Shown here one piece after another: positions 15,201 to 58,391 of a stretch of DNA of 58,391 nucleotides (the first letter of the stretch is position 1; every line of letters starts with the position of its first letter). Both the position numbers and the translations under genes were made by a program. The DNA is from an uncultured Armatimonadetes bacterium (GTDB lineage: Bacteria > Armatimonadota > Armatimonadia > Armatimonadales > Armatimonadaceae): positions 1 through 58,391 of the forward strand of contig CAIRTT010000055.1 in the NCBI GenBank assembly GCA_903881535.1. Reading direction: 5' to 3'. Below the pieces are notes generated by a model. The model was not told the DNA's origin and searched no databases. It worked only from the letters and a program-made list of their open reading frames with translations.

Positions 15201-15586
15201 TGGGCACCCCGGAGGAAGCCAAGAAGGTGGCTGCATCGCTGCAGAACATCGGCATCCCTGTGTCTAAGTACGCTCCCGGCGTTGCACGTGCCACGGCCCT
15301 CGAAGCAGGGCGCGAAGCCCGTGCTGGCCAGGAGCTGCCAACTGCTGCGGCAGGCAAGCCTGTCATGCCCGAAACAAGCGCCCGGGATATGCTCAAGCGG
15401 GCCATGCCGCCCGCACCGCCAACACGTGGATCGCAGTTCAATCCTCGCCTGCCCACTACCCCGCCGGCCGCGCCGCAGAACACAAATTTGATGTACCCAG
15501 CGCTGTTTCCGAACGATCCAATCAGCGGTATGCTTCAACAACGGGCCGCGGCTCAGCAGCGGCCTCCGGGCGCGCCACCACAGTAA
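12221..15586 (+). CDS. large alpha-helical virion protein (internal core/ejection candidate)
   Basis: 1121 aa with a TAATG overlap with the upstream gene, a helical-looking composition and a Pro-rich C-terminus. Confidence 0.5.
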   Translation: MATIMNARGEMVDLTTGDVVGRSETAPVSQEPRSAAAPDLPVPEGDKLTGLVNNLSWGFNSALFALPDAATRMIGKGLGLDEKQVFQLGKFFNRGEVNPANAEQRYSRAIGEGLGGTLPFTGLLAYAAKAAPMVKVAEPAAGTLKQVANEALRFVQDNPRLAAATDLVFGAGYETMRQAVEENVDPNNPNKGLYKELMPAAAFIGMPMAVANLPSVRMAGWAKNKLQGASANMGEIEKETLQNLPGVWQLPLVKIVPTMLMKNAENKLAKVFGPISESPEAQEALKRLETALMDPDIANAGFLFDAAEKTMYTPLLQRKAELLQQLGPKELEVTKTRINENQRKLQVLFDSFSPEARKPIEDAFLAAQTERQNFFTSLLKQQKGMTDAEIMSVSERLGPQNIDLLNDELRGVLMSRMEMDASGREKILSRMGLRQGTSPEGLPMPTREDGKSLFQSADMEDAATALIQKYRVERPSMRADVPEPIRLLENFVKTQQMAREKLESRMLTQLTDNAISEQLASAGKDLPADFQKAIRDSVVKMVRGEKVKGKGRGVSVGELAGTPDGNGNLSIPTGIPGRKITINPEQLRADAARIAEADTGIDINLPEALDYLQAAIRFRNDSLARYNAAMHRGTTRITDAQRHLDTGSAVFNDVEKLILGHVPKIAREYEGMKMVLDDYRAGFEQNLPLLMAQKKGRGDEFLLPNEALLQKAFSNADNLRQLNVSLMGSPDANGLLERGAVDWLRSKGVVTSEGLVDPKKVRSVLDKNRNIVEALPADVQAKLKNEVALADDYATRMGELDTRRVNAKNNELDTLLAKATRPGADPKQTLVKALQDPATMNTLVTHLANDPENLAALRRSVYDIATEGAQGGGALKNFIDQNEKSLRVLFKDTAHFDNLKTLADLQRRVNAFADVTGQIPAFESLDSALKRVFGSGIQFLTTTMREAAVGRINPSTGALALMVRLTGGLENQLYQRIFTRALEDPEFAKRITHVGTPEEAKKVAASLQNIGIPVSKYAPGVARATALEAGREARAGQELPTAAAGKPVMPETSARDMLKRAMPPAPPTRGSQFNPRLPTTPPAAPQNTNLMYPALFPNDPISGMLQQRAAAQQRPPGAPPQ

Positions 15587-15597
15587 TGGAGTAAAAA

Positions 15598-15987
15598 ATG
15601 GAAATGATTGGACAACTGGTGGGCACCTTGTTTTTAAGCAGGGAAGTAGCCCACCGCGCCCATTTGGCGGTGAAGCCCGTCATGGGCAGCTTTGCTATGC
15701 ACACCAGCCTTGGCGAGTTTTACGACAGCGTCACCGAAATGGCCGACCGCCTGACAGAGGTATATCAGGGCCGTATGGATACCCTGATTGAAATCCCGTA
15801 CCTTGATTTTCCTAAGTCAGAGAACCTTCCAAAAGATATTTTAGGAATCTTGGAAGATCACCTCGACGACATTGAAAGCCTGCGCTACACTGCTGTGGAC
15901 AAGAAGGAAACGATGCTGCAAAACGTGATCGATGAGATCGTTGAGCTTTACAGCCACACCTTCTACAAACTTCGCAATTTCCGCTAG
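15598..15987 (+). CDS. four-helix-bundle Dps/ferritin-like protein (tentative)
   Basis: 129 aa with GGAG upstream. The pattern AHRAHL...SFAMHTSLGEFYD...ADRLTE resembles Dps-like phage proteins. This is from memory only. Confidence 0.45.
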   Translation: MEMIGQLVGTLFLSREVAHRAHLAVKPVMGSFAMHTSLGEFYDSVTEMADRLTEVYQGRMDTLIEIPYLDFPKSENLPKDILGILEDHLDDIESLRYTAVDKKETMLQNVIDEIVELYSHTFYKLRNFR

Positions 15988-16063
15988 ATCTGCGGATTGC
16001 AACAGGCAGTTGCCAGGGGGATAAAGAGACGCGGGCCTACTCCACCTGCGTTTCTCCTGGACT

Positions 16064-16792
16064 TTATGGGCTCACAGGCTGACCATCGGCCTGTGAGCTC
16101 TTTTCTTTGTGGAACCGCTCTACGCGCCGCATCCAAGCGTCCTTGTACTGCGAGAACTCCCGCCCACACGTGACAAATTCTTGCGTCGCACCCGTCTGGT
16201 CCACCATCATCACCACACCGTGATCGATGTCCGTTCCATGCTTGACGTTGTGTGCTACAGCGTACGCGGCCAACTGCAGGAAGTAGTCCTCAATCCAGTT
16301 GCGCTGCTTCATTTTATTGGCTTGTTTGAAGTCAATGATTGAGGGGTTGTTTTTGTACACCGCCACGCAGTCAGATGTGCCTGCATACAGCCCCGGGTGG
16401 TACAGCATCACCTCTGCGCCCCAGACCTCTTGGACGTGCGGAAAGAATGTATCAATGAGCTTGTAGCCCATCCAATAACCACGGACCGCGAGCCATGTGC
16501 GCGGTGTTGGCAGATCGCGGTTCAGCAGCAGCCGCTCCACCACGTTGTGCATGTGGGTGCCCACCGTAGCCGCGTCATTTTTGATGCGCTCCGCTTCTTC
16601 TGGACCAATGCGCGCGGCCCACGAATCAAGGTGCTTGGCGTCTTTGGTGCTCGACAGGATACTGGTGACACTGGGTAGACGTGTCGATTCACCGGGGTGT
16701 ACGTACACACGTCCTTCGGGTGCGTCGATTCTTTGCAGTTTTTCGTACACGTAGCGTTTGTGAACAGGGATGAGTTGCATTAGATGAGCCAT
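16064..16792 (-). CDS. PD-(D/E)XK RecB/Cas4-like exonuclease
   Basis: 242 aa. Motifs are GTHMHNVVE and GTSDCVAVY...IIDFKQ...YFLQLAAY (the D...D/E-x-K...Q..Y pattern). Confidence 0.7.
   Translation of the reverse strand: MAHLMQLIPVHKRYVYEKLQRIDAPEGRVYVHPGESTRLPSVTSILSSTKDAKHLDSWAARIGPEEAERIKNDAATVGTHMHNVVERLLLNRDLPTPRTWLAVRGYWMGYKLIDTFFPHVQEVWGAEVMLYHPGLYAGTSDCVAVYKNNPSIIDFKQANKMKQRNWIEDYFLQLAAYAVAHNVKHGTDIDHGVVMMVDQTGATQEFVTCGREFSQYKDAWMRRVERFHKEKSSQADGQPVSP
16070..16108 (+). terminator. rho-independent terminator for the rightward block, embedded in the 3' end of the converging nuclease gene
   Basis: 10-bp perfect stem (gctcacaggc / gcctgtgagc) with a 9-nt loop, followed by tcttttcttt. Confidence 0.6.
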
Positions 16793-18260: not shown

Positions 18261-18319
18261 TTGACAACCTGCAAAAGTATTGTACACTAACCCTACGTTT
18301 CAAGAAAGGATAGTGTAAC
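18261..18319 (+). promoter_or_regulatory. sigma70-type promoter plus conserved leader for the replication block
   Basis: TTGACA (18261) - 16 nt - TACACT (18283), then AGAAAGGATAG (18303..18313) 6 nt before the GTG at 18320. Confidence 0.6.
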
Positions 18320-18649
18320 GTGTCTAAAGTTTATGTAGTGCAAGAGATGCCCAATCACGACATCGCCTCTGCAATGAAGTTCGGTGAGTTGCAAGTTTTG
18401 CTGCCCTCCAATACTCAAGTTGCTTTTTCCACCGCGCCAGTTGTGCGCCGGCTGCGAAACAAGCTGCGAGAGTACAAGGATGGCGATTACCTGCTGCTGA
18501 CCGGTGATCCCGTAGCAATTGGCTTGGCCTGCTCAGTTGCCGCGTTGTATAACTCTGGCCGGATGACACTTCTCAAATGGGATCGCCGTGAGAGAATGTA
18601 TATCCCCGTGAAAGTCGATGTAACACAGAATGGAGAAAGTGATGACTGA
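18320..18649 (+). CDS. hypothetical protein
   Basis: 109 aa with a GTG start after the conserved leader. Confidence 0.6.
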   Translation: MSKVYVVQEMPNHDIASAMKFGELQVLLPSNTQVAFSTAPVVRRLRNKLREYKDGDYLLLTGDPVAIGLACSVAALYNSGRMTLLKWDRRERMYIPVKVDVTQNGESDD

Positions 18650-29587: not shown

Positions 29588-29590
29588 TAG

Positions 29591-29646
29591 CTATCCTTTC
29601 TGTGTTGAGAAGGTGTTATTATCAGGGTACAAGCGACACGTGTCAA
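29591..29646 (-). promoter_or_regulatory. strong sigma70-type promoter plus conserved leader for the leftward operon
   Basis: On the minus strand: TTGACA (29646..29641) - 17 nt - GATAAT (29623..29618), then AGAAAGGATAG. Confidence 0.7.
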
Positions 29647-29673
29647 GAAGAAAATAGAAAATATTTTGGGGAT

Positions 29674-29764
29674 TTTATTGTGGGAAACCCTTATGGGAAT
29701 ATATACAGGGTGGGAATGTACACAGGGTGTGGATTTATACAGAGTGGTGGTCTATATGTGGGTT
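29674..29764. repeat. iteron-like array of imperfect 13-18-bp direct repeats
   Basis: Units are atatacagggtggga, atgtacacagggtgtgga, tttatacagagtggtggt and ctatatgtgggtt, plus weaker units upstream (ttattgtggga, cttatggga). Confidence 0.6.
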
Positions 29765-29801
29765 TTGATCTAAGGAGGGGGGTTTTTATGTGTTTTTGCG
29801 G

Positions 29802-30021
29802 TTCCCTATAGAACTTTTTAGGGTAAGAGGTGTTTTTATTTTTTTAAAACGTCAAAATGGCGTAATAGACGTAATGGTGTAAGAAGTGAGTGTTTATGCG
29901 GGTTGTGGACTAGACGGTGACATTACAGGGGTAGTTGAGAGACGTAATTACTGGGATGTCCCAGACTTTTTTTTTGGAAGGTTTTTTTTTCATCGATACC
30001 CCTAAAAAGTTCTATAGGGAA
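29802..30021. repeat. 22-bp perfect inverted repeat pair separated by 176 bp
   Basis: ttccctatagaactttttaggg (29802..29823) is the reverse complement of ccctaaaaagttctatagggaa (30000..30021). The interior holds an AT-rich tract, AGACGTAAT x2 and T9-GGAAGG-T9. Confidence 0.85.
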
Positions 30022-30070
30022 ACAAGATTGGTTTTGGAGAGGGGAAAGGGCCTTGGACCATGGAGCGCGC

Positions 30071-30130: not shown

Positions 30131-30361
30131 ATGTTACAAATAGAGAAAGATATTCCTGTTCCGGAGCAGACAACGAAGTATCCGTTCAAGGATATGGAGA
30201 CGGGCGACAGCATCTATTTTGAGGATGAGAGACAGGCCAACAGTGCCCGTGTATCGGCATTGCGGTTTGCGGGCCGTCAGGAGGCCGTCTGGGGCTTTAC
30301 GCTGCGAAAGACGGACCCAGACAGGGATAAGGTAGGATGGCGGCTCTGGAGGACTGAATAA
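30131..30361 (+). CDS. small conserved phage protein
   Basis: Start at MLQIEKDIPVPE with GGAG 9 nt upstream. The track start at 30053 would overlap the promoter. Confidence 0.55.
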   Translation: MLQIEKDIPVPEQTTKYPFKDMETGDSIYFEDERQANSARVSALRFAGRQEAVWGFTLRKTDPDRDKVGWRLWRTE

Positions 30362-31026
30362 TGGGCAAGAAGGACGTTTGGAATGTGCCCCCTGTCACGC
30401 CTGATAAGGCGCGCAATAGGTTGGCCACTCCCGTCAAACCCCTGAAGAAGTACAAAAGCCTTAGCGACAAGGAATGGACCTTTGTTCAGGAGCTTGTTGC
30501 GGGTGATGGACGGGTGACCATGAAGGAGGCAGCGCTTCGCGCAGGCTATACGGAAGTGAGCGCCTCTGTGATGGCGTGGAAGCTCACGAACCCTGATATC
30601 AATCCTCACGTGGTGTCGGCAATTCAGGCTTACCGTGCTGAATTGGCATCCAAGTACAACACGTCCTACGAGCGGCACATGAAGGACCTGCAGACGATCA
30701 GGGACAAGGCTCTGGAAGCAGGTGCGTACGCAGCTGCTGTACAGGCCGAATATCGCCGTGGCCAAGCCTTGGGTACGATCTACGTAGAGCGCAAGGAAAT
30801 CAGGCATGGCACGATCGACAGCATGAGCAAAGAGGAAGTGCAGCGCAAGCTGGACGAATTAAAACGGCTATATGGCGGTCCCCCACCGACTGCCTTGATT
30901 GATGCCGATACCGGAAAGGTGCTCGACAGTGTCGCAAGAGAAAAAGACCCCGCTTTTGAATCTGGAGTGGAAGAACCTCCGACTGACATTTTTGAACTGG
31001 ACCCCTCCGATGGCCCAGACTCCTGA
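30361..31026 (+). CDS. terS: terminase small subunit (Terminase_2-like)
   Basis: Pattern LSDKEWTFVQELVAGDGRVTMKEAALRAGYTEVSASVMAWKLTNPDINPHVVSAI, followed by a coiled-coil region. Confidence 0.7.
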   Translation: MGKKDVWNVPPVTPDKARNRLATPVKPLKKYKSLSDKEWTFVQELVAGDGRVTMKEAALRAGYTEVSASVMAWKLTNPDINPHVVSAIQAYRAELASKYNTSYERHMKDLQTIRDKALEAGAYAAAVQAEYRRGQALGTIYVERKEIRHGTIDSMSKEEVQRKLDELKRLYGGPPPTALIDADTGKVLDSVAREKDPAFESGVEEPPTDIFELDPSDGPDS

Positions 31027-31444
31027 GGCGCGCTTTTCTGCACGTGTTCGCGATGGCTTGGGCGCGGTCGGATGCGATGTGGAGCGAATCGAAAACAGGG
31101 TAAACCTTGGCGTGTCCGACATGGTGGTCGGCGTGGGTTCGCGCTATGTCACGATCGAGCTCAAAGCGGTTACCGCGGGGCTTAAGGTTACGCTGCGCCC
31201 CCACCAGATTGCCTTTTTGCTTCGCCATGGCCGCGCCGGCCGGCCGGCGTTTGTGCTTGTGTGGCAAGCAGCGCGCAAGGATAGCCCTGACTTTGTCCAT
31301 TTGTACCGCGGGCGCGATGCGATTGCCCTTGCTGAATCGGGTTTGCGCCTGATGCCTATGGCCGCATGGCCAAGCCGTGGCCTACCATGGCAAGAGCTGA
31401 AGGATGCCTTGATAGATGATGACTATCAGGGGGCTGAAAATTAA
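31010..31444 (+). CDS. VRR-NUC / PD-(D/E)XK nuclease
   Basis: Start at MAQTPEARF, a 17-nt overlap with terS. Contains GVSDMVV...VTIELK...LRPHQIAFL. Confidence 0.6.
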   Translation: MAQTPEARFSARVRDGLGAVGCDVERIENRVNLGVSDMVVGVGSRYVTIELKAVTAGLKVTLRPHQIAFLLRHGRAGRPAFVLVWQAARKDSPDFVHLYRGRDAIALAESGLRLMPMAAWPSRGLPWQELKDALIDDDYQGAEN

Positions 31445-31456
31445 AGAAAAAATCAA

Positions 31457-31524
31457 TTAGACAGGGCTCAAATTGGCGTAGAATTAACGCATCGGATCCC
31501 CCGATACCTAGAAAGGATAGAGAG
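31457..31524 (+). promoter_or_regulatory. cassette module A (promoter, short hairpin, conserved leader)
   Basis: TTAGAC (31457) - 16 nt - TAGAAT (31479). Hairpin atcgg/ccgat at 31491..31505. Leader TAGAAAGGATAGAGAG lies directly before the ATG at 31525. Confidence 0.6.
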
Positions 31525-31734
31525 ATGAAAACCTTAACCCATGAACAAGAGGCATTCGTTCAGGCTTATGCGCGAATCGTTGCGGTGGCATCCGAGGAAG
31601 TCGTTCGGATTTACTTTGAGATGGACGATGACGATAAGTTTTATGAAACATACCAACATGAGTATGCAAGCGTAACGGATGCCTATCTGCTGTGGGACGC
31701 TGCCCGCCGTTACGAAGCAGGGGAGACAAAATGA
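31525..31734 (+). CDS. hypothetical protein
   Basis: 69-aa ORF after module A. Confidence 0.6.
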   Translation: MKTLTHEQEAFVQAYARIVAVASEEVVRIYFEMDDDDKFYETYQHEYASVTDAYLLWDAARRYEAGETK

Positions 31735-32099
31735 AAAACGTTTACGCTTATTTCAGGGACTGTAAAAACTGCGGCTTAGAAATCCCTGACTTTGACCAAT
31801 TCGCCCGATATAACGCCGTTGAAATTGATCCGGTTTTTGTTTTTTATGATGACCTTGGGAACGTTAACGGGTACGAGCGAACCGATGAGGCGGAAATTAA
31901 ATTGCACCCTTATTGGAATGTGGTGTATAGCGTGTATTTGCACCACGACGCAATGCACCCCGACAATCGCGGCTTTGGTGGTGCCCAATGCGTTGGAGAC
32001 TTTCCTTCGCTTGAGATTGCTCAGACCTTCGCGGCTTTTATGGATCAGCTGCTAAACCTTGCAAACTACATCAAAACAACACCGGAGAAAACAGCATGA
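31731..32099 (+). CDS. hypothetical protein
   Basis: Start at MKNVYAYF with GGGAGA upstream and an ATGA overlap. Confidence 0.6.
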   Translation: MKNVYAYFRDCKNCGLEIPDFDQFARYNAVEIDPVFVFYDDLGNVNGYERTDEAEIKLHPYWNVVYSVYLHHDAMHPDNRGFGGAQCVGDFPSLEIAQTFAAFMDQLLNLANYIKTTPEKTA

Positions 32100-32260
32100 C
32101 CGTTTCCGAATTGCTTGCTCAGTTTAAAGATGTCGCCGGCGACACACTGGTTTATGTCTGGTTAGGTGGCGAAAGGCACCCAGTTTTGAACGTGGATGAT
32201 TCTTTTTTAAGCCCAAAAGACGGCGGATTTATTGAAATAAATGTGTTGACCGATGCTTAG
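32096..32260 (+). CDS. hypothetical 54-aa protein
   Basis: Hand-translated as MTVSELLAQFKDVAGDTLVYVWLGGERHPVLNVDD...NVLTDA. ATGA overlap. Its 3' end carries the module B promoter. Confidence 0.5.
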   Translation: MTVSELLAQFKDVAGDTLVYVWLGGERHPVLNVDDSFLSPKDGGFIEINVLTDA

Positions 32261-32311
32261 GTTGTGTTATACTTAACCCTGTGGAATAACCCACACTTAG
32301 AAAGGATAGAG
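32246..32311 (+). promoter_or_regulatory. cassette module B
   Basis: TTGACC (32246) - 16 nt - TGT-TATACT (-10 at 32268). Hairpin tgtgg/ccaca at 32280..32295. Leader CTTAGAAAGGATAGAG lies before the ATG at 32312. Confidence 0.65.
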
Positions 32312-33016
32312 ATGTTAAAAACTGTAGCCGTCATGTCTAATAAAAAGACCGGTCCCATTGCAGGCACTTACCGCAGTGGGGCGCATGAGACCTATGCAAC
32401 ATGCCCTAAAACGTGTGGATTGCATCCAAAAAGCGAGACCGGATCAGAACAGATTGATCCGGAATACTTGGCGGCATTGCTTGAAGCCGTACCGCGTAGG
32501 GGCATTGCATGGACTTATTCACACTTTGACGCTAAGGGTTTACCCATGTGGGAACAGGGCAAAACTGTGATCAATGCAAGCTGTGACACGGAAGCCGAAG
32601 CCGTGGCAGCTGTGAAAATTGGCCGGCCGGCAACATTTGCCGCGCCCTTGAATACCGCGGACCAATGGCCCAAAACTGTGGAAGGCGTTAAATTTGTCCG
32701 GTGCCCTGCCGATATGTCCGAATCATTCACGTGTCAACAATGCGGGAATGGATCCCCACTGTGTGCCCGCGGTGACCGTGATTTTGTTGTGGTGTTTGTT
32801 GCGCATGGTAGCGGTGCCAAAAAAGTAGGAACCGATCAAGAGGGCGGATGCTATGCTGCACAGGGTCCGGTAGCTATGCAATGGCACGGAACCCGCAAAA
32901 CAGGTGCCGCCAATGACGCTCAGGCCTTGCGCGCTTTCGCTAAGTCTCTCCCGTTCGGGTCCATGCTGCGCCATCATGTCGCCGGCGATATTGGACGGGA
33001 CCGGATCCAATGCTGA
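32312..33016 (+). CDS. Cys-rich protein, GP88-like (tentative)
   Basis: Start at MLKTVAV after the conserved leader. Contains CPKTCG, FTCQQCGNGSPLC, GGCYA and LRHHVAGDIG. Confidence 0.5.
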   Translation: MLKTVAVMSNKKTGPIAGTYRSGAHETYATCPKTCGLHPKSETGSEQIDPEYLAALLEAVPRRGIAWTYSHFDAKGLPMWEQGKTVINASCDTEAEAVAAVKIGRPATFAAPLNTADQWPKTVEGVKFVRCPADMSESFTCQQCGNGSPLCARGDRDFVVVFVAHGSGAKKVGTDQEGGCYAAQGPVAMQWHGTRKTGAANDAQALRAFAKSLPFGSMLRHHVAGDIGRDRIQC

Positions 33017-33210
33017 TATTTGCCGTACTAATCATGCTCATTTTGTGGTGGATTGTTGACTTATTCGATCCTAATGGTTAACCGGACCGGCAAAACCCGC
33101 GGTTCCTGCCGGTTTCCCTCTGTGGTTATGCATTTATTGCATAACCTTGCTGAGTTAAGCCGGTCAGGGTAAACCTGCCCCGTGGTCCCTGTTGCTTGCT
33201 GCGTTAAACG

Positions 33211-33244
33211 TGGCGCTTGGCGCTTGGGCCGTGGCGCTTGGCGC
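33211..33244. repeat. GGCGCTT boxes / 13-bp direct repeat tggcgcttggcgc x2
   Basis: Copies at 33211..33223 and 33232..33244. Further TTGGCGCG and GTGGCGCGCG copies lie at 33274..33298. Confidence 0.8.
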
Positions 33245-33257
33245 GGCTTGCAGTGAT

Positions 33258-33275
33258 AGTTAGTGCTCACTAACT
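33258..33275. promoter_or_regulatory. 18-bp palindrome agttagtgctcactaact
   Basis: 8-bp arms that are exact reverse complements around a 2-nt centre. Confidence 0.7.
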
Positions 33276-33298
33276 TGGCGCGCGGACCGTGGCGCGCG

Positions 33299-33320
33299 CA
33301 TTGTTTCACGTGAAACAATG
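33299..33320. promoter_or_regulatory. 22-bp perfect palindrome cattgtttcacgtgaaacaatg
   Basis: The two 11-nt halves are exact reverse complements, with a CACGTG centre. Confidence 0.8.
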
Positions 33321-33358
33321 GCCGCGGGCCGGCTATCGGGGCGCGTGGTTTGATAGGA

Positions 33359-33442
33359 AAATACAATGGGCCGTGGCCCACGGACCGCGGTATAATTGAG
33401 ACACTGCGGCACGGTGCCGCAGTACTTAGAAAGGATAGAGAA
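33359..33442 (+). promoter_or_regulatory. cassette module C
   Basis: AAATACAATGG (33359) - GC-rich palindromic 23-nt spacer - TATAAT (33391). Hairpin actgcggca-cgg-tgccgcagt at 33403..33423. Leader CTTAGAAAGGATAGAGAA. Confidence 0.65.
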
Positions 33443-33640
33443 ATGATGAGCTTTATTACACCTTCAAGGAAATACCACGTAGAGAGCCACGGTAACGGGT
33501 GGGCTTATGAGGTAACCCACCGCGAGAGCGGCGCGTCGTTCTGGGTTCAAGACCACGACGCGGAACAGCTGCAGCGTGACACGGACGACTTCACACAAGA
33601 GGATATCTTGTCTGAATATTTAGACATGTTGGGGGAATAA
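33443..33640 (+). CDS. hypothetical protein
   Basis: 65 aa, start at MMSFITPS after the leader. Confidence 0.6.
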   Translation: MMSFITPSRKYHVESHGNGWAYEVTHRESGASFWVQDHDAEQLQRDTDDFTQEDILSEYLDMLGE

Positions 33641-33641
33641 C

Positions 33642-33770
33642 ATGACGCACGACGAAATTCGGGAATACTACGATTCCCACCTCAACATGACGCTGCGAGA
33701 GCTCTCGCAAATGACCGGCTTGAGCATACCCGTGCTCAAGGCAATTATTTTGGAAGGGGCCGTTATATGA
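33642..33770 (+). CDS. 42-aa helix-turn-helix-like protein
   Basis: Hand-translated as MTHDEIREYYDSHLNMTLRELSQMTGLSIPVLKAIILEGAVI. ATGA overlap with the next gene. Confidence 0.5.
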   Translation: MTHDEIREYYDSHLNMTLRELSQMTGLSIPVLKAIILEGAVI

Positions 33771-34165
33771 GCTGCTTTGTTGTTTCCCCACTGCACATCG
33801 ATATCCTTGTATCGTGGGCCATGGCCCACAAGGCCCCGTGCTTTCCGGCACCCTTGACGCCCGTGATGGTTGCTAACCTGTTGGCTGACGCCAACAATCA
33901 GGCTTATGCAGAACGCTACAAGGAACCAGTGACAAACCACTACCGGTTTGAATTTCGAGAGACCGCGGGAAAGGTGCCGGCCCTGCAGATTCTTAAGGCC
34001 TGTCGCTCCCTTAAGTACCAGTGCAGCGACTGGCGCGAGTGGAAAGAAAGCCGCGCGTTTCAACTGGTTGACGCTATTGAGAGTATGGCAATTCATAAGC
34101 TCCCAGGCTATGACGACATGTTGTGGGAGCTGACCCCGTATCTGCGGAACAGTCTTCCCGCATAA
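33767..34165 (+). CDS. hypothetical protein
   Basis: 132-aa ORF. Confidence 0.6.
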   Translation: MSCFVVSPLHIDILVSWAMAHKAPCFPAPLTPVMVANLLADANNQAYAERYKEPVTNHYRFEFRETAGKVPALQILKACRSLKYQCSDWREWKESRAFQLVDAIESMAIHKLPGYDDMLWELTPYLRNSLPA

Positions 34166-34167
34166 CG

Positions 34168-34190
34168 CTATCGGGGCCATGCCCCGATAG
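34168..34190 (+). terminator. GC hairpin after stop codon (terminator-like, no U tract)
   Basis: ctatcgggg-ccatg-ccccgatag: a 9-bp perfect stem. Confidence 0.45.
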
Positions 34191-34192
34191 AT

Positions 34193-34275
34193 AAATACAA
34201 TGGCCCGCGGGCCATTGTCCGCGGTATAATTGATTCAACCAACAATCAGTTGGTCAACCTAGAAAGGATAGAGAA
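34193..34275 (+). promoter_or_regulatory. cassette module D
   Basis: AAATACAATGG (34193), 16-bp palindrome atggcccgcgggccat, TATAAT (34225), weaker hairpin accaac/gttggt (34238..34254), leader CCTAGAAAGGATAGAGAA. Confidence 0.65.
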
Positions 34276-34704
34276 ATGTCAAACCCCTTCCGTAAACACG
34301 TCAGCAACCTGTTCGGCTCACGCGGCTGTGATATCGACAGCGCATTGAATGACGCTAATGAAATTGTGCAGGCCCTGCCGGTCGAATCACGCGCGCATGC
34401 AATGACCGCGCTCATGATACTGGTCAACACTGCAGCCGGTGCCTTTGATCAGGCTCAGGGTCCAAGCCCTGAGAAGCTCGCAATACTGGACCTGATCCGG
34501 ACCGAGATAGGTAACTGGGCAAGTAGTAACCTTGACGATCACATTGACGGGTGGATCGGTGACAACTTGGACAATCACCTAGACAACTGGGCAACTAACA
34601 ACTTGGACATGGACCACAGCATTGAGGAGTGGATGAACAGCAACATACAAGGTACGGTTAGCGAAGCAATAGACAACATGGACCTAGTGGTTCGTGTGCG
34701 ATAG
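34276..34704 (+). CDS. hypothetical protein with NLD-x-H/W repeats
   Basis: 142 aa. The C-terminal half reads NLDDHIDGWIGDNLDNHLDNWATNNLDMDHSIEEW. Confidence 0.6.
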   Translation: MSNPFRKHVSNLFGSRGCDIDSALNDANEIVQALPVESRAHAMTALMILVNTAAGAFDQAQGPSPEKLAILDLIRTEIGNWASSNLDDHIDGWIGDNLDNHLDNWATNNLDMDHSIEEWMNSNIQGTVSEAIDNMDLVVRVR

Positions 34705-34706
34705 TT

Positions 34707-34793
34707 AAATACAATGGACCTCAGGCCACGGCCTGAGGTATAATCTAAGTACTGGATCAGCCGATCCAGTACAACTCAGAAAGAAGAAACACC
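34707..34793 (+). promoter_or_regulatory. cassette module E
   Basis: AAATACAATGG (34707), hairpin acctcaggc-cacg-gcctgaggt running into TATAAT (34739), UTR hairpin gtactggatc-agcc-gatccagtac (34749..34772), degenerate leader AGAAAGAAGAAAC. Confidence 0.65.
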
Positions 34794-35069
34794 ATGACTA
34801 AGATCCTCATTATCGACAGCACCCGTTATGCTTTACCTGCGGGCATGAGCACCAAGGACCAACAGGCATTAGCCGGCTTTCTGGTCACACTGACCAGAGT
34901 GGATTATGAATACTGCTACGGGGATGAAGAGAATGCCTACTACGCAAGAGACGGGGCAGCCATCAGCATCAGTGAGCAGGAGCTGATGACCAAAGCCGAG
35001 GCCAAAGCCAAAGCAGAAAAGACCCGCTTAGAGTACGAAGCGAAGAAAGCGGCACAAGAAAAAGTATAA
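34794..35069 (+). CDS. hypothetical protein
   Basis: 91-aa ORF with a Lys/Glu/Ala-rich C-terminus. Confidence 0.6.
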   Translation: MTKILIIDSTRYALPAGMSTKDQQALAGFLVTLTRVDYEYCYGDEENAYYARDGAAISISEQELMTKAEAKAKAEKTRLEYEAKKAAQEKV

Positions 35070-35097
35070 GCAACTGGGGGCCACGGCCCCCATTATT

Positions 35098-35153
35098 GTG
35101 TTATACTCTAAGTACTGAAGCACGGTGCTTCAGTACTTAGAAAGGATAGAGAG
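35098..35153 (+). promoter_or_regulatory. cassette module F
   Basis: TGT-TATACT (-10 at 35102), 15-bp perfect UTR stem (35108..35122 paired with 35126..35140, loop cgg), leader CTTAGAAAGGATAGAGAG. Confidence 0.65.
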
Positions 35154-35342
35154 ATGAACGCACTTACAACACCCGACCAGATCCAAGCCTACCGCAGGCT
35201 AACCCTAATCCAGATGCTCAAGCTGGAAATCAGGGGGATGCATAAGAAAGGCCGAAGCGCCTACAGTATCCTGAAAGAAGAGACAGGACTGAAGGGCACA
35301 AGGCAGCAGCTGCTAGAGCAGCTAACCAAACCCACACAGTAA
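35154..35342 (+). CDS. hypothetical protein
   Basis: 62-aa ORF. Confidence 0.6.
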   Translation: MNALTTPDQIQAYRRLTLIQMLKLEIRGMHKKGRSAYSILKEETGLKGTRQQLLEQLTKPTQ

Positions 35343-35411
35343 CGCAACAGCGCTCCGCGGCCCCGCGGAGCGCATGCATGAGCCTTCCGACAAGGGGGGA
35401 GGGCCATAACG

Positions 35412-35450
35412 AGGCCCTAGCTCTAGAGCTAGGGCCTTCTCCCTGTTTTA
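35412..35450 (+). terminator. 26-bp perfect palindrome followed by a T-rich tail (terminator closing the cassette array)
   Basis: aggccctagctct/agagctagggcct (35412..35437), then tctccctgtttta. A second hairpin, gcgctccgcgg/ccgcggagcgc, lies at 35350..35373. Confidence 0.55.
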
Positions 35451-35552
35451 GCCCCAGAATTATGCCCAGAGAACCTGGACCCCCACCCCCAGAAAAGGCC
35501 CCCTTGGTCCGTGATCCGTGATCCTGGGTTATATTTATAAAAATTTCAAAAC

Positions 35553-37043
35553 GTGGCCCTTGGTCCACGCACCTATATGCAGCCAATTCCTGACGATGTC
35601 CAAGCGGAGCAGTTAAAACTTGAACTGCGGTTACGTACTTTGGAGGCGCATGATCGTGCAACCACGGGCTTTTTAGATTTCTGTCGATATGTGTGGCCGG
35701 AGATGTTGGTTGGTGAGCATCATTTGCGGATTGCGAAGGCGCTGGACAGGGTGGTTTCTGGAGAGTGCAAGCGGTTGATGATTGCGATGCCCCCGCGCCA
35801 TGGTAAGAGTCAGATGGGCAGTTATTTGTTTCCGGCATATCTCATGGGCCGTGATCCGACGTCCAAGTTAATTGTGGGATCCCACACGGCGGAGTTAGCG
35901 CAGCGTTTTGGCCGGATGATCAGGAACCTTGTGGATGATGAGCGGTACAAGGAGTTATTTCCTGGAACGTCTTTGTCGGTGGATTCCAAGGCTGCGGGCC
36001 GGTGGTCCACGAGCCAGGGAGGGGAGGCGTTTTTTATTGGTAAGGGTGGTGCAATGACGGGCCGCGGTGGTGACGTGGTTATTTTGGATGATATTTTGGA
36101 TGAGCAGGATGCGTTGTCGGATACGGCGATGGAGAACACGTTTGAGTGGTACACGTCGGGGCCTCGGCAGCGCCTGCAGCCCAATGGTTCTATTGTGGTG
36201 ATTAATACGCGGTGGAAGACGGATGATTTGACGGGGCGTTTGCTTAAGCAGCAGGGGAACTTGAAGGCGGATCAGTGGGAGGTGTTGGAGTTTCCGGCGA
36301 TCTTACCCAGTGGCAATGCCCTTTGGCCGGGGTACTGGAAGATTGAGGAGTTGGAGAAGGTCAAATTATCGATTGGGATGCAGAAGTGGAATGCTCAGTG
36401 GCAGCAGCAGCCTACGGGATCGGAGGGTGCGATCTTGAAGCGGGAGTGGTGGAGGAAGTGGAAGAATGATGTACCGCCTGTTTGTGAGTATGTGATCCAG
36501 AGTTATGACACGGCGTACTCTAAGAAGGAGACGGCGGATTATTCTGTGATATCCACGTGGGGTGTATTTTTTCCCAGTGCTGATTCGGGGCCAAATTTAA
36601 TTTTGTTGAATGTGCGCCGTGGTCGGTGGGACTTCCCGGAGTTAAAGCGTATTGCCAAGGACGAGTATCGGTACTGGAATCCTGACAATGTATTGATTGA
36701 GGCGAAGGCTACGGGTACGCCGTTGCAGCAGGAATTGAGGAAGATGGGGATACCGATTCAGATGTATTCTCCGGGGGGCAGGCGGCATGGTCAGGACAAG
36801 GTGAGCCGTGCGAACGCTGTGGCTCCGTTGTTGGAGAGCGGGATGATTTGGTATCCTGAGGATGAGGAGTGGGCGCAGGAGATGGTGGAGGAGTGCGCCG
36901 CGTTTCCTGTTGGGAGTCACGATGACCAGGTGGATTCAGCGGTAATGGCTTGGACGCGGTTTCGTGCTGGTAATTTCATTTCGCTGGAAGATGATGACAA
37001 CGAAGAGAAAGAGCCGGATAATAGGATACTGGAATATTATTAA
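35553..37043 (+). CDS. terL: terminase large subunit
   Basis: Walker A-like MPPRHGKS, Walker B VVILDDILDE, and nuclease motifs SYDTAYSKKETADYSV and GSHDDQVDSAVMAW. The start is ambiguous (GTG 35553 or ATG 35577) and neither has an RBS. Confidence 0.9.
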   Translation: MALGPRTYMQPIPDDVQAEQLKLELRLRTLEAHDRATTGFLDFCRYVWPEMLVGEHHLRIAKALDRVVSGECKRLMIAMPPRHGKSQMGSYLFPAYLMGRDPTSKLIVGSHTAELAQRFGRMIRNLVDDERYKELFPGTSLSVDSKAAGRWSTSQGGEAFFIGKGGAMTGRGGDVVILDDILDEQDALSDTAMENTFEWYTSGPRQRLQPNGSIVVINTRWKTDDLTGRLLKQQGNLKADQWEVLEFPAILPSGNALWPGYWKIEELEKVKLSIGMQKWNAQWQQQPTGSEGAILKREWWRKWKNDVPPVCEYVIQSYDTAYSKKETADYSVISTWGVFFPSADSGPNLILLNVRRGRWDFPELKRIAKDEYRYWNPDNVLIEAKATGTPLQQELRKMGIPIQMYSPGGRRHGQDKVSRANAVAPLLESGMIWYPEDEEWAQEMVEECAAFPVGSHDDQVDSAVMAWTRFRAGNFISLEDDDNEEKEPDNRILEYY

Positions 37044-40473: not shown

Positions 40474-42828
40474 ATGGCAATTGAAAAACTAATGCGCGCA
40501 GACGATCTCCCAGCCGGAGATGTGGATGTTGAGGTAGATGAAGGTCCAGCGTTGGACGTGGACATAGAGTTTGATCAAGATACGGGTGATGTAATTGTTG
40601 GGATTGGTGAAGGCGAGGACGATGTCCCGTTTGACGCCAACCTTGCAGAGGTGGTGGACAAATCAGTGCTCACGGGCATTGGCGCAACATTGCTTTCTTT
40701 GTTTGAAGCGGACAAAGCATCGCGCAAAGACTGGGAAGACCAGTACAGCAAGGGCTTGAAGCTCTTGGGCTTCAACATCGAAGAGCGTACCCGTCCATTT
40801 AAGGGTGCGTGTGGCGTGAGCCACCCTTTACTCTCTGAATCCATTGTGCAATTTCAGTCGCAAGCGCTCAAAGAGTTGTTGCCAGCCGACGGTCCTGTTC
40901 GCACACAGGTGCTGGGCAAGGAAACGCGTGAAAAGATCATGCAGGCCGAGCGGGTGAGCGACTTCATGAACTACCAGATCACTTCGGTAATGGAAGAGTA
41001 CACACCCGAGTTCGACCAACTGTTGTTTTACACAGGCTACGGCGGATCCACCTTCAAGAAGGTGTACTACGATGAGGCCAAGGGCCGCATGGTCTCTGCT
41101 TTGGTGCTGCCAGACGACCTGTACATCCCGTACAACGGCTCAAGCGTGATGAGCGAATGCGAGCGCGTGACGCACCGCATTTATATGTCCACCAACGCGT
41201 ACAAGAAGGCCGTGATGCGCGGTCAATACTTGGATACCGCGATGGCGCAGGCGACCAACATCGGTTCGCAAACGCAGATCAGAAAAGAAGTTGACAAGCT
41301 CACCGGTATTTCGGCCACATCGGACGAAGAAGAGTTGAGCCTGTTGGAATTCGAGATTGAGTATGACCTCGAAGGCTTTGAACACAAGGATGAAGACGGT
41401 GAACCCACGGGTATGGCGCTGCCGTACATCATCACAATGGATGAGAACTCCATGGACGTGGTGGGTGTCCGCCGCAACTGGAAAGAGGGCGACAAGCTCT
41501 TCCGTCCAAAGCAATACTACGTGCATTACATGCTGGTCCAAGGCCCTGGGGCGTATGGCCTGGGCTTTTTGCAGCTGGTGGGCGGCTTGTCAAAGACCGC
41601 CACTGGCGCATTGCAGCAATTGATTGATGCGGGCACGTTGGTGAACTTGCCTGCAGGCTTTAAGGCCAAGGGCGCGCGGATCATGAACGATGACGTGCCG
41701 ATTCAACCGGGCGAGTGGCGCGATATCGATGTGGGGGGAGCGGAGATTCAGTCTTCTATGCTGCCACTACCCTACAAAGAGCCAAGCCAGACGTTGTTTG
41801 CACTGCTTGGTTTCTGTGTGGACGCCGGCCGGCGCATGGCCAGCATCACCGACATGCAAGTCGGTGACAGCAACCAGAATGCTGCTGTGGGCACCACCAT
41901 TGCGCTCTTGGAAAAGGGCAGCTCGGTCATGTCCGCAATTCACAAGCGCCTGCACTACAGCCAGCGCCTGGAATTTCAATTGTTGGCCAAGGGTTTTGGC
42001 GAGTTCCTCCCGGATGAGTACCCCTACGATGTGCCGGGCGAAAGCCGCACCATCAAACGCAAAGATTTTGATGATCGCTGCGTCAGTGTGCTACCTGTTT
42101 CTGACCCCAACATCTTCTCGGTTGCCCAACGCATCACCATGGCGCAGACGCAGCTGCAGTTGGCTCAGAGCGCACCGCAAATGCACAACATGTACGAGGC
42201 CTACCGCCGCATGTATGAAGCAATTGGTGTGCGGGATATTGATGGCATTTTGAACACGCAGAACGTGGACAAACCCAAGGACCCAGCCAGCGAAAACAGC
42301 CAGGCATTGGATGGCTCTCCGCTTAAGGCATTCTCTGGCCAACAGCATGACGCGCATATCACAGCTCACTTGCTGTTTGGTATGTCTCCCATGATGGGCA
42401 GTATGCCCAACGTGGCCACCAACATCCAGAAACACGTCTTTGAGCACATCACGCTTAAGGCGGAAGAAGAAGTTGAAGCGGAGATCTTCCGTCAATACGG
42501 CGTGGACCCCGGCCGCATGGTTTCTGCCTTGCAGCGTGAAGCTATGGTGGCTCTAAAGGTCACCCAGTTCTACCAACAAGTCAAGCAGGAGCAGACCCAA
42601 CTGTCCGGCGGGGACCAGCCGCCACCTGACCCATTGGTCGAGCTCAAGAAACAGGAGCTGGCGCAGTCTGCGCAGCGTGATCAAGCTAAGTCACAGATGG
42701 AACAGGCTCGTTTGCAGTTTGATCAGAAGCGCGAAACGGACGACATGCAGGTGGATCAGGCCAAATTGGCGATTCAAGCTGCTAAAAATGGACCACAAGG
42801 AGCCCGAAATGCCAATCAAGCCCAGTAA
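40474..42828 (+). CDS. portal protein
   Basis: 784 aa. The call rests on position between terL and the scaffold/capsid genes, an acidic N-terminus and a Gln-rich C-terminus. Family recognition is by context only. Confidence 0.7.
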   Translation: MAIEKLMRADDLPAGDVDVEVDEGPALDVDIEFDQDTGDVIVGIGEGEDDVPFDANLAEVVDKSVLTGIGATLLSLFEADKASRKDWEDQYSKGLKLLGFNIEERTRPFKGACGVSHPLLSESIVQFQSQALKELLPADGPVRTQVLGKETREKIMQAERVSDFMNYQITSVMEEYTPEFDQLLFYTGYGGSTFKKVYYDEAKGRMVSALVLPDDLYIPYNGSSVMSECERVTHRIYMSTNAYKKAVMRGQYLDTAMAQATNIGSQTQIRKEVDKLTGISATSDEEELSLLEFEIEYDLEGFEHKDEDGEPTGMALPYIITMDENSMDVVGVRRNWKEGDKLFRPKQYYVHYMLVQGPGAYGLGFLQLVGGLSKTATGALQQLIDAGTLVNLPAGFKAKGARIMNDDVPIQPGEWRDIDVGGAEIQSSMLPLPYKEPSQTLFALLGFCVDAGRRMASITDMQVGDSNQNAAVGTTIALLEKGSSVMSAIHKRLHYSQRLEFQLLAKGFGEFLPDEYPYDVPGESRTIKRKDFDDRCVSVLPVSDPNIFSVAQRITMAQTQLQLAQSAPQMHNMYEAYRRMYEAIGVRDIDGILNTQNVDKPKDPASENSQALDGSPLKAFSGQQHDAHITAHLLFGMSPMMGSMPNVATNIQKHVFEHITLKAEEEVEAEIFRQYGVDPGRMVSALQREAMVALKVTQFYQQVKQEQTQLSGGDQPPPDPLVELKKQELAQSAQRDQAKSQMEQARLQFDQKRETDDMQVDQAKLAIQAAKNGPQGARNANQAQ

Positions 42829-57866: not shown

Positions 57867-58355
57867 ATGATCGACCCAATAACCATTGGCGCTGCGTTTG
57901 CGATAGCCAAGAGCACGATTGCTGGCGTCAAAGAAGCCATCAAGCTCGGCAAAGACATTCAGGAATGCTCTGGTGATCTGCTTAAGTTCTTTGAGCACAG
58001 GGACACGGTAGCCAAAGCTGCGGTGCTGGAGAGGAAGAAACCCGGTTCAGAGTTTACCCAAGCGGCCAGTGCTGTGTTTCAGGCAAGGGCATTACGGCAG
58101 GCCGAGAAAGAATTGAAAGAGCAGTTGATTTACTCCGGCAACGGGGATGTGTGGGAAGCGATTCAAGCCGAGTACAACCTGATTGTTGCCCGGCGTAAGC
58201 GGGAAGAACGTGAAGCGGAGGCTAAAGCCAAACTGAAACGGGAAAATCTGGCGGAGACAGTAAACATTTTGTTGATTGGGCTTGTCTCTATTCTTGCCGC
58301 AGGCTTTGTTGGCTGGGGAACGCTGGAATTTATTATGTACAAGTTGAAGAACTAA
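57867..58355 (+). CDS. coiled-coil protein with C-terminal transmembrane anchor
   Basis: 162 aa. Has a charged helical region (RRKREEREAEAKAKLKRE) and then ILLIGLVSILAAGFVGWGTL. The N-terminus ITIGAAFAIA is mildly hydrophobic. Confidence 0.6.
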   Translation: MIDPITIGAAFAIAKSTIAGVKEAIKLGKDIQECSGDLLKFFEHRDTVAKAAVLERKKPGSEFTQAASAVFQARALRQAEKELKEQLIYSGNGDVWEAIQAEYNLIVARRKREEREAEAKAKLKRENLAETVNILLIGLVSILAAGFVGWGTLEFIMYKLKN

Positions 58356-58391
58356 CATGGCAGAGGAAAAACTGGACTCTACGCTTGAAAA
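58264..58391. repeat. terminal overlap, copy 2 (identical to 1..128)
   Basis: Exact 128-nt match to the start of the window. Confidence 0.9.

Follow-up and report, generated by a model that had tools for sequence, protein, structure and literature searches.

In T4-type phages, genes are shuffled by repeated cassettes known as promoter-early stem-loops (PeSLs), each of which joins a sigma-70-like promoter, preceded by AT-rich DNA, to a stem-loop terminator and a Shine-Dalgarno/start, and which are repeated in the hyperplastic regions where they mediate this shuffling (PMC2839356; PMC4122927). A locus of related design is described here from a phage sequence of 58,391 bases, called the window and meaning the whole stretch of DNA analyzed, in which positions 33017 to 33356 had been singled out by the original prediction as a noncoding island dense in repeats and palindromes. 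The explanation that we prefer, and to which we give about an even chance, is that this island is a composite transcription-unit boundary in which PeSL-like cassettes are combined with one sequence-specific site. The parts of the island, their conservation, the instability of its copy numbers, and the variable cargo downstream are evident from sequence comparisons. From left to right, the island and the cassette that begins inside it contain the following elements.

33010 to 33081, plus strand: mini-open reading frame (mini-ORF) MLIFAVLIMLILWWIVDLFDPNG, 23 amino acids (aa), hydrophobic, predicted membrane peptide, stop codon at 33079 to 33081.
33084 to 33122, plus strand: hairpin A followed by UUUCCCUCU, 3 to 4 nucleotides (nt) past the mini-ORF stop; a moderate candidate for an intrinsic terminator.
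33124 to 33146, plus strand: hairpin B, an AT-rich loop closed by a perfect stem of 9 bp, GGTTATGCA-TTTAT-TGCATAACC.
33151 to 33216, plus strand: the core, GTTAA-N10-GTAAACCTGCCCC...GTTAAACGTGGCGC, single copy per genome.
33210 to 33244, plus strand: heptamer array, (G/T)TGGCGC x5 or alternatively a 21-bp unit x1.6, in a single orientation.
33258 to 33275, strand-neutral: 8+2+8 inverted repeat, AGTTAGTG-CT-CACTAACT, specific to the strain lineage of the window.
33276 to 33309, plus strand: TGGCGCGCGGACCG unit followed by TGGCGCGCGC, giving a hairpin of 7 GC pairs and then AUUGUUUCAC; terminator candidate.
33299 to 33320, strand-neutral: 22-bp perfect palindrome with halves CATTGTTTCAC and GTGAAACAATG.
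33321 to 33331, strand-neutral: GGCCGCGGGCC mini-hairpin, which together with AAACAATGG resembles a partial cassette copy.
33333 to 33356, strand-neutral: CTATCG-N12-TGATAG stem-loop or operator-like element that opens the cassette.
33357 to 33442, plus strand: remainder of the cassette, with a AAAATACAATGG box, GC hairpin spacer, TATAAT at 33391 to 33396, and 5' hairpin at 33403 to 33423.

Read as a boundary, the island would be a shortened version, in the window, of an intergenic landmark that the whole family has in single copy. A mini-gene for a 23-aa membrane peptide would close the gene string that runs from the small-terminase gene (terS) to a gene for a DUF7227 protein, and would be followed by a 3' untranslated tail made up of two hairpins, the ~65-nt core, slippage-prone heptamers, and a GC hairpin whose U-rich tail would stop rightward transcription. 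Leftward transcription would be stopped by the back-to-back tails of the 22-bp palindrome and the adjoining partial cassette copy, and the complete cassette from 33333 would restart transcription for the next small gene via its sigma-70-like promoter, with the 5' hairpin serving as a transcript stabilizer and the invariant leader in ribosome binding. Cassette copies would also supply homology for swapping the genes that they flank, as PeSLs do in T4-type phages. The terminator and promoter activities invoked here are predictions from pattern and position.

The right-hand end carries the PeSL-like features. In a BLAST comparison of the gap with the window, its right part recurred 5' of other small genes, and cassette copies having most elements in common precede the starts at 31525, 32312, 33443, 34276, 34794, and 35154. 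Cassettes are ~85 to 110 bp long and flank each small gene between 31.4 and 35.2 kb (window 31440 to 35153), their order being a CTATCG...CGATAG stem-loop, an A-rich box (AAATACAATGG), a GC spacer hairpin, a TATAAT-like box, a strong hairpin where the transcript is predicted to start, and a leader. The shared 18-nt leader, AGAAAGGATAGAGAAATG, occurs 6 times against 0.01 expected; the almost invariant leader reads ACTTAGAAAGGATAGAGAA before the ATG at 33443, AAGGA lies ahead of this ATG, and the 5' hairpin before it (33403 to 33423) has a folding energy of −15.4 kcal/mol (z −4.1). A further leader copy (18303 to 18320) precedes a gene at 18320. At 33333 to 33442, the stem-loop, A/T-rich box, sigma-70-like promoter, Shine-Dalgarno sequence, and start codon of a PeSL-type architecture were all found, the copies are many and lie in a hyperplastic block where the genes are small orphans, and sequence comparison of relatives points to cassette-bounded insertion, deletion, and replacement of genes.

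The right end of the proposed island, 33333 to 33356, is the first element of this repeated cassette, which runs to the ATG at 33443 and recurs at least five times. The CTATCG-N12-TGATAG element at 33333 to 33356 is the sole exact match in the window, and a similar stem-loop element is found at 34170 to 34192. In the main family of relatives, most of the cassettes compared here have CTATYG-N11/12-CGATAG directly 5' of the −35 region (L039 lacks it), and most can be written as CTATYG-N12-CGATAG, AAACAATTCATTGGAC, N17, a TATAAT-like box, a hairpin, and AGAAAGGATAGAGAAATG. The family promoter consensus is TTGGAC-N17-CACAAT/TGTAAT, and a clearer sigma-70 form in relatives reads CGATAGAAACAATTCATTGGAC-N17-CACAAT/TGTAAT.

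Gene content between the DUF7227 gene and terL varies among relatives, and the slot immediately after the island is occupied by at least 10 unrelated gene families. Control of a downstream module by a cluster of operators had been among the functions first proposed for the island; operator or promoter control is supported only for the right-hand end (33333 to 33442), and a gene-specific operator cluster is unlikely because the island is kept while the first gene after it belongs to at least 10 unrelated families. The small 42-aa protein encoded at 33642 to 33770, suggested as an island binder on the strength of a helix-turn-helix (HTH) motif, is a poor candidate, having an HTH match below threshold (E ~0.04) and being found in the window lineage only. 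When runs X1, X3, and X5 were compared with window positions 31500 to 35500, co-occurring related strains differed by cassette-bounded rearrangements; X1 and X2 are lake-water runs that contain the window genome at 100%. In one run contig, 31528 is fused to 34256 and the 2727 nt that separate two leaders are missing, as would be expected after cassette-mediated recombination.

Predicted terminators lie immediately to the left of the complete cassette. In a terminator scan, the hairpin at 33278 to 33299 (−15.5 kcal/mol) was the top plus-strand candidate between 30.0 and 35.6 kb; it shows the intrinsic-terminator pattern of 7 GC pairs followed by ATTGTTTCAC, a pattern match only. This hairpin aligns with the canonical terminator of relatives (in L014, an 11-GC-pair stem followed by TTACTTTTCC) and is weaker than their 11-pair stem followed by TTACTTTTCC or TTTGTTTTTTCC. 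The 22-bp palindrome that comes next (−12.2 kcal/mol, z −3.7) keeps 18 of its 22 bp in L002, a relative that is 98% identical, and perfect palindromes of at least 16 bp are confined in the window to 31.2 to 35.5 kb. The right half of the 22-bp palindrome, AAACAATGG, repeats the cassettes' −35-proximal box, and GTGAAACAATGG of the right half together with GGCCGCGGGCC resembles the cassette −35 box and part of the hairpin (compare 34193 to 34212), the opposite strand of which is a predicted terminator with the tail CCAUUGUUUCAC. Spacer hairpins of other cassettes, followed by CCATTGTATTT, were flagged as minus-strand terminators. Because the right half resembles a cassette part that would terminate transcription of the opposite strand, we infer that the palindrome represents two back-to-back U-rich terminator tails between two GC hairpins and is partly cassette derived. 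At the position of the mini-hairpin (33321 to 33331), L002 has GGCCCGCGGACCGCGGGCC.

Other hairpins in the island vary in strength and conservation. Hairpin A (33086 to 33113; −15.9 kcal/mol, z −2.4) was not flagged by a strict terminator scan, and in L002 it has three changes that leave the stem formable, as judged by hand pairing on the alignment and not by folding. Hairpin B is more stable than expected (−13.1 kcal/mol, z −5.2), and relatives have another hairpin with a ATTATTTG-like center at this position. The inverted repeat at 33258 to 33275 forms a weak hairpin (−5.5 kcal/mol, z −1.4) and is missing from L002. Between lineages the sequence of a hairpin differs while the hairpin itself persists, with some compensatory changes; in one GC hairpin, GGGGCGCG/CGCGCCCC stands against GGCCCGCG/CGCGGGCC, and the modules are optional. 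Inspection of the palindromes and core, by eye only, revealed no convincing sigma-54, LexA, CRP, DnaA-box, or IHF consensus.

As a description of what the letters contain, the original prediction was confirmed in part. The repeat- and palindrome-rich gap is real, with all of the repeats and palindromes that it listed present at the stated coordinates and far above chance, including the hairpin ACCGGCA...TGCCGGT (33086 to 33113), the hairpin GGTTATGCA-TTTAT-TGCATAACC (33124 to 33146), a direct repeat of TGGCGCTTGGCGC at 33211 and 33232, further copies as TTGGCGCG at 33275 and GTGGCGCGCG at 33289, and the perfect 22-bp palindrome at 33299 to 33320. What had been called an 18-bp palindrome at 33258 to 33275 consists of two 8-nt arms around a nonsymmetric CT. 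The gap is not unique in the genome, because noncoding stretches are also present at 29588 to 30052 and 35343 to 35552.

The statement that the gap lacks a credible ORF fails for 33017 to 33081 and holds for 33082 to 33331. The ATG of the 23-aa mini-ORF at 33010 overlaps the stop codon of the DUF7227 gene (ATGCTGA), and this overlapping start, together with a 19- to 23-aa membrane peptide carrying a ...GWLLD-like motif, was found in ~20 distinct relatives; within this ORF, L002 differs by a single synonymous substitution (GAT to GAC). Judged by this conservation, the opening 65 nt of what had been taken as noncoding DNA belong to the coding sequence of a family-conserved membrane mini-protein. 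From 33082 to 33331 the comparison of strains indicates noncoding DNA, since indels of 65 bp and 14 bp between strains disrupt all of the long ORFs on both strands. A 106-aa minus-strand ORF (33061 to 33381) was discarded because it is frameshifted by the 65-bp deletion in L002 and by the 14-bp insertion in two other strains, and a 32/39-aa plus-strand ORF (33053 to 33172) was discarded because its L002 changes are all nonsynonymous.

The core is the part of the island that appears to be held as sequence. Noncoding positions 33166 to 33216 are 76 to 91% identical between the window and the main family, against 23 to 40% identity, equivalent to saturation, at the 4-fold degenerate sites of terS and the DUF7227 gene, and on this comparison the core is under clear purifying selection. 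An nhmmer search found one strong core copy in the window, the window sequence having itself been part of the model, and no core copy in the metagenome-assembled phage DSL-LC04, the closest GenBank relative. A pattern written for the island, GTTAA-N10-GTAAACCnGnCCC-N15-45-TGGCGC, matched 17 viral contigs, all from the window phage family and with one site each; in metagenomes it had 14 matches, comprising 11 further family contigs and 3 unrelated chance matches, and in 596 Gb of bacterial and archaeal genomes it had 0. RNAalifold detected no consensus structure in 20 core sequences (6 marginal pairs, −2.1 kcal/mol). The lack of a consensus fold, the single copy, and the absence from DSL-LC04 point to recognition of the core as sequence, by a protein or by base pairing, and make it a putative recognition site for a sequence-specific factor.

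The heptamer array that begins at the end of the core is far less stable. Tandem Repeats Finder (TRF) reported a period of 7, TGGCGCT x4.9, at 33211 to 33244. TGGCGC occurs 6 times on the plus strand within 85 nt and 0 times on the minus strand there, compared with 37 occurrences per strand in the whole 58 kb, and other 275-nt segments hold at most about 2. A 65-bp deletion in L002 removes the right half of the array, strains of runs X3 and X5 have a 14-bp insertion that adds an extra TGGCGCGCGGACCA unit (a duplicated unit of the 33276 to 33309 region), and L021 and L074 have array expansions of their own. These differences suggest an array that is prone to slippage, with a copy number that is unstable between near-identical strains. 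The island of L074 (metagenome contig Ga0070749_10042500) contains a tandem (CTTTGCC)x7, another period-7 array in a different lineage.

Conservation in relatives, one of the checks proposed for the island at the outset, was assessed in part by a protein-guided scan of IMG/VR, which gave 50 loci. A homologous, single-copy island occupies the same place in ~25 distinct relatives, where the region follows a DUF932 gene; by DNA similarity, the island had no match in 50,697 GenBank phages. The order in relatives is a stop codon, one or two hairpins, the core, and AAACGTGGCGCGG, then GC-rich heptamer-like repeats with 3 to 4 optional GC hairpins and a canonical terminator, and after the terminator a G-rich block and a cassette. 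The window and L002 lack the DUF932 gene and retain the hairpins, the core, the TGGCGC boxes, a weaker terminator, and the cassette, with lineage-specific palindromes in the middle. At the same place in more distant clades, a clean terminator is followed by several hundred noncoding bases with one-orientation repeats, which are period-7 CCGTGG boxes in DSL-LC04 and a G-rich block plus GCTTCGCT x3 in the L049 clade; in both, the repeat stretch lies directly before the terL promoter. The clean terminator at the start of the noncoding stretch in DSL-LC04 and the L049 clade supports a boundary, as does the presence or absence of hairpin modules among relatives.

Several features of the region are seen in relatives and not in the window. 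In most island-bearing relatives examined, the DUF932 gene (Pfam E 2e-55; L008 4888 to 5844; DSL-LC04 15030 to 16079) lies between the mini-ORF and the island. The G-rich block, GGTGGCGGCGGGGGCGGGCGGG (GGCGGGGGTGGGCGGGC in the L049 clade), is nearly invariant in the interval between terminator and cassette (L014 ~6150 to 6200; L049 5750 to 5785) and could on paper form a G-quadruplex; the window lineage lacks it. The Pelagibacter phage HTVC027P was set aside for island comparison, being too diverged and differently arranged.

Other observations weigh against a boundary of this kind. The tail of the window terminator, AUUGUUUCAC, is weak, the cassette at 33333 has a poor −35 and was not flagged by a consensus promoter scan, and a wobble test for the folding strand, with 9 G-T versus 5 A-C non-Watson-Crick positions, gave no clear strand signal. 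A plain boundary leaves unexplained the near constancy of the 65-nt core, the single orientation of the GC-rich repeats, and a single-copy landmark that stays fixed while its neighbors change, all of which would equally suit a genome-level cis site. The following genes place the island within the phage genome.

30361 to 31026, rightward string: terS candidate.
35553 to 37043: terL, start of the structural-gene run.
40474 to 42828: portal gene, in the structural-gene run.

Positions 1 to 128 and 58264 to 58391 of the window are exact copies of each other, a 128-bp assembly overlap that identifies a circularly assembled phage genome of ~58.3 kb, circular or circularly permuted. Structural genes extend from terL and the portal gene onward, across the circular junction, up to ~16 kb; a replication block of helicase, primase, helicase, and PolA occupies 16 to 25 kb, leftward small genes occupy 25.3 to 29.6 kb, and the rightward gene string opens at 30053. 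The gene upstream of the gap, first described as GP88-like, matches a DUF7227 protein instead, and the gene (32312 to 33016) probably begins with the ATG at 32312, downstream of a cassette. Protein identity to DSL-LC04 is 64% for terL, 66% for DUF7227, and 69% for TerS, and the next closest GenBank relatives are Pelagibacter phages HTVC027P and HTVC023P. DSL-LC04 represents a proposed uncultivated family without experimental data and has Pseudomonas as its predicted host (PMC10611076). The window phage is a podophage-like genome of ~58 kb from an abundant, uncultivated freshwater family.

Some further features of this genome were noted. The terS candidate is overlapped for 128 nt, in another frame, by an ORF (provisionally 30899 to 31444) that is kept in relatives and shows weak similarity to PHROG families of helicases and endonucleases. 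The 210-nt noncoding stretch before terL (35343 to 35552) contains a 26-bp perfect palindrome (AGGCCCTAGCTCTAGAGCTAGGGCCT, 35412 to 35437), which is the longest in this genome, and a direct repeat, CCGTGATCCGTGATCC; in relatives this stretch keeps a AAAACCACCCCCTTG...GGGGTATATAT motif, which is probably the late promoter. The 3' half of terL (36001 to 37000) has the maximum GC skew of the genome, +0.375. A terL search returned one 2.6-kb contig binned in a Crocinitomicaceae metagenome-assembled genome, too weak a clue for naming a host.

The alternatives are taken in descending order of probability; the analysis gave no positive evidence of a packaging site, an origin, or an RNA gene. Unlikely, and the most serious of them, is that the island is a packaging (pac) site, with the core and/or the phased TGGCGC boxes bound by the TerS encoded at 30361 to 31026 and packaging directed rightward through terL. 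A core that is single copy per genome, family specific, and conserved as sequence and not as fold would fit such a site, as would an island placed between terS and terL whose position is stable while neighboring genes change, direct repeats spaced at 7, 14, and 21 bp in one orientation, and the repeat region directly before the terL promoter in DSL-LC04 and L049. The circular assembly with its 128-bp overlap fits headful or terminal-repeat packaging. A pac site is usually within or adjacent to terS, and the P1 pac hexamers, lambda cosB R sites, and SPP1 pacL boxes lie within or beside that gene. Like these arrays, the one in the window consists of short, one-orientation direct repeats present in single copy in a packaging-gene neighborhood; unlike them, it lies 2 kb from terS, and its copy number shifts between near-identical strains. 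Gain and loss of units between such strains, and modules that differ among relatives, are unusual for a terminase site and argue against a pac function. In the main family the core is conserved alongside an 80%-identical TerS, but it is absent from DSL-LC04 despite a TerS that is 69% identical. Contig ends within the island, a possible sign of physical DNA ends, were found in ~7 of ~30 contigs, but they are scattered and do not fall on one nucleotide; they were rejected as physical ends and read as assembly breaks at variable repeats.

It is distinctly less probable that the repeats and palindromes beyond the terminators and cassette are functionless, being debris of slippage and recombination at a recombination-prone junction. 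Shifts in copy number between strains, the lineage specificity of the hairpins, and the partial cassette copy at 33309 to 33331 are what such a process would leave behind. The clear purifying selection on the core speaks against it, as does the recurrence of period-7, one-orientation GC repeats independently in the window, the main family, L074, and DSL-LC04.

Production of a non-coding RNA from the island, such as a product of a 3' untranslated region in which the core would act as a single-stranded seed between hairpins and the terminator would set the end, is likewise quite improbable. The island does lie 3' of a coding string and 5' of a terminator in all clades, its core resembles seed regions in conserving sequence without conserving a fold, and positions 33070 to 33200 fold better than shuffled sequences (z −3.8). 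Against this, Rfam 15 (E ≤ 1) gave a sole hit, to snoR53Y, at 22.5 bits compared with a gathering threshold of 43 (E 0.33), and ARAGORN found no tRNA or tmRNA. With the core also lacking a consensus structure, the structured RNA that had been suggested found no backing; wobble pairs gave no strand signal, no upstream promoter was found, length and module content vary widely, and no complementary target was found within the window.

A cluster of Chi-like sites, in which oriented G/T-rich octamers upstream of the packaging start would attenuate the host RecBCD entering at the exposed concatemer end and moving leftward, is decidedly doubtful. The octamer GCTGGCGC, an experimentally defined Pseudomonas Chi, attenuates the nuclease of Pseudomonas syringae RecBCD if the enzyme arrives from the 3' side of the octamer (PMC5959072), and the lambdoid phages LLS and MD8 have numerous oriented Chi sites clustered toward the end that packaging leaves open (PMC12315714). 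In main-family islands GCTGGCGC occurs 52 times on the plus strand and once on the minus strand, or 5.9 per kb versus 0.21 per kb in the flanks, an orientation that would be active if the DNA end lay to the right of the island; for DSL-LC04, moreover, the predicted host is Pseudomonas (PMC10611076). However, the 52 counts represent 2 to 3 homologous positions inherited across relatives and not independent events, and one of these positions is inside the CTATTG...CGATAG element of the cassette. The window island has 0 exact octamers, its boxes CGTGGCGC and CTTGGCGC matching at 6 of 8 positions, and the window genome has 5 on the plus strand and 4 on the minus strand against 7.5 expected, without genome-wide enrichment. 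In the DSL-LC04 island, CCTGGCGC is found once and its complement twice. The exact octamers of relatives resemble those of LLS and MD8 in being one-oriented and concentrated in a noncoding stretch upstream of terminase and structural genes, but they differ in number, with only 2 to 3 sites per island against tens per genome, and the window has 6/8 variants without genome-wide bias.

The pac and Chi possibilities could also be combined, at the same low probability as the Chi cluster by itself, with the island as a packaging-end landmark in which the core would be the terminase recognition sequence and the upstream, one-orientation Chi-like boxes would protect or recombinationally activate the exposed concatemer end. 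The boxes would then be exact Pseudomonas Chi in most relatives and variant heptamers in the window, and differences in the hypervariable heptamer array would reflect which Chi sequence each host recognizes. The oriented Chi octamers of relatives offer a cheap, testable link between the landmark, host RecBCD, and host identity.

A secondary replication origin with iteron-like repeats, proposed at the outset, is extremely improbable, since the island has two 21-bp super-repeats (33210 to 33251) and many hairpins but a GC content of 0.60, no 40-nt segment below 0.35 outside the hairpin B loop and so no AT-rich unwinding stretch, no adjacent initiator gene, and an unstable repeat number, whereas the skew minimum (28 to 29 kb) and a divergent, AT-rich region of 465 nt lie at 28 to 30 kb. 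That region (29588 to 30052) is noncoding with a GC content of 0.40 and separates the leftward small-gene operon from the rightward terS operon. Its repeats are a tandem one of 17 bp, TGGGAATATATACAGGG x3.2 (29694 to 29747), and a 20-bp inverted repeat (29806 to 29825 and 30000 to 30019). Close to the cumulative GC-skew minimum at ~28 to 29 kb, it is the best candidate for an origin and early control region.

With a composite boundary and PeSL-like cassettes, a previously featureless gap would gain an annotated layout that applies to an abundant freshwater phage family known only from uncultivated members. If the cassettes are active, they would explain the swapping of the small-gene block before terL between relatives, and shuffling cassettes of the PeSL type, so far described in T4-type myoviruses, would have a counterpart of similar behavior in another phage family. 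The selected noncoding core would be the best handle on the pac site of this family or on a key DNA- or RNA-binding factor.

Compared with the PeSLs of T4-type phages, the window cassettes are alike in being ~100 bp long and in combining a stem-loop terminator or attenuator with an A/T-rich box and a sigma-70-like promoter, followed by a Shine-Dalgarno sequence and start codon; they also repeat in a block of small orphan genes, and the content between copies differs among close relatives. They are unlike PeSLs in having no sequence similarity to them, so that the resemblance is one of design, and in adding a 5' untranslated hairpin and an almost invariant 18-nt leader. Their −35 is weak in the window, their promoter and terminator roles are predicted, the island exceeds the cassette by ~250 nt, and the genome is that of a podophage-like phage of ~58 kb from an uncultivated freshwater family and not of a T4-type phage. 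Terminator-promoter junctions of the kind associated with morons (PMC2839356) offer a second likeness, since in both a hairpin and U-tract are followed by a promoter between independently expressed small genes. Morons, however, are independent of conserved flanking repeats, whereas the small genes of the window are flanked by conserved cassettes, and the junction examined here also includes a 65-nt core under selection.

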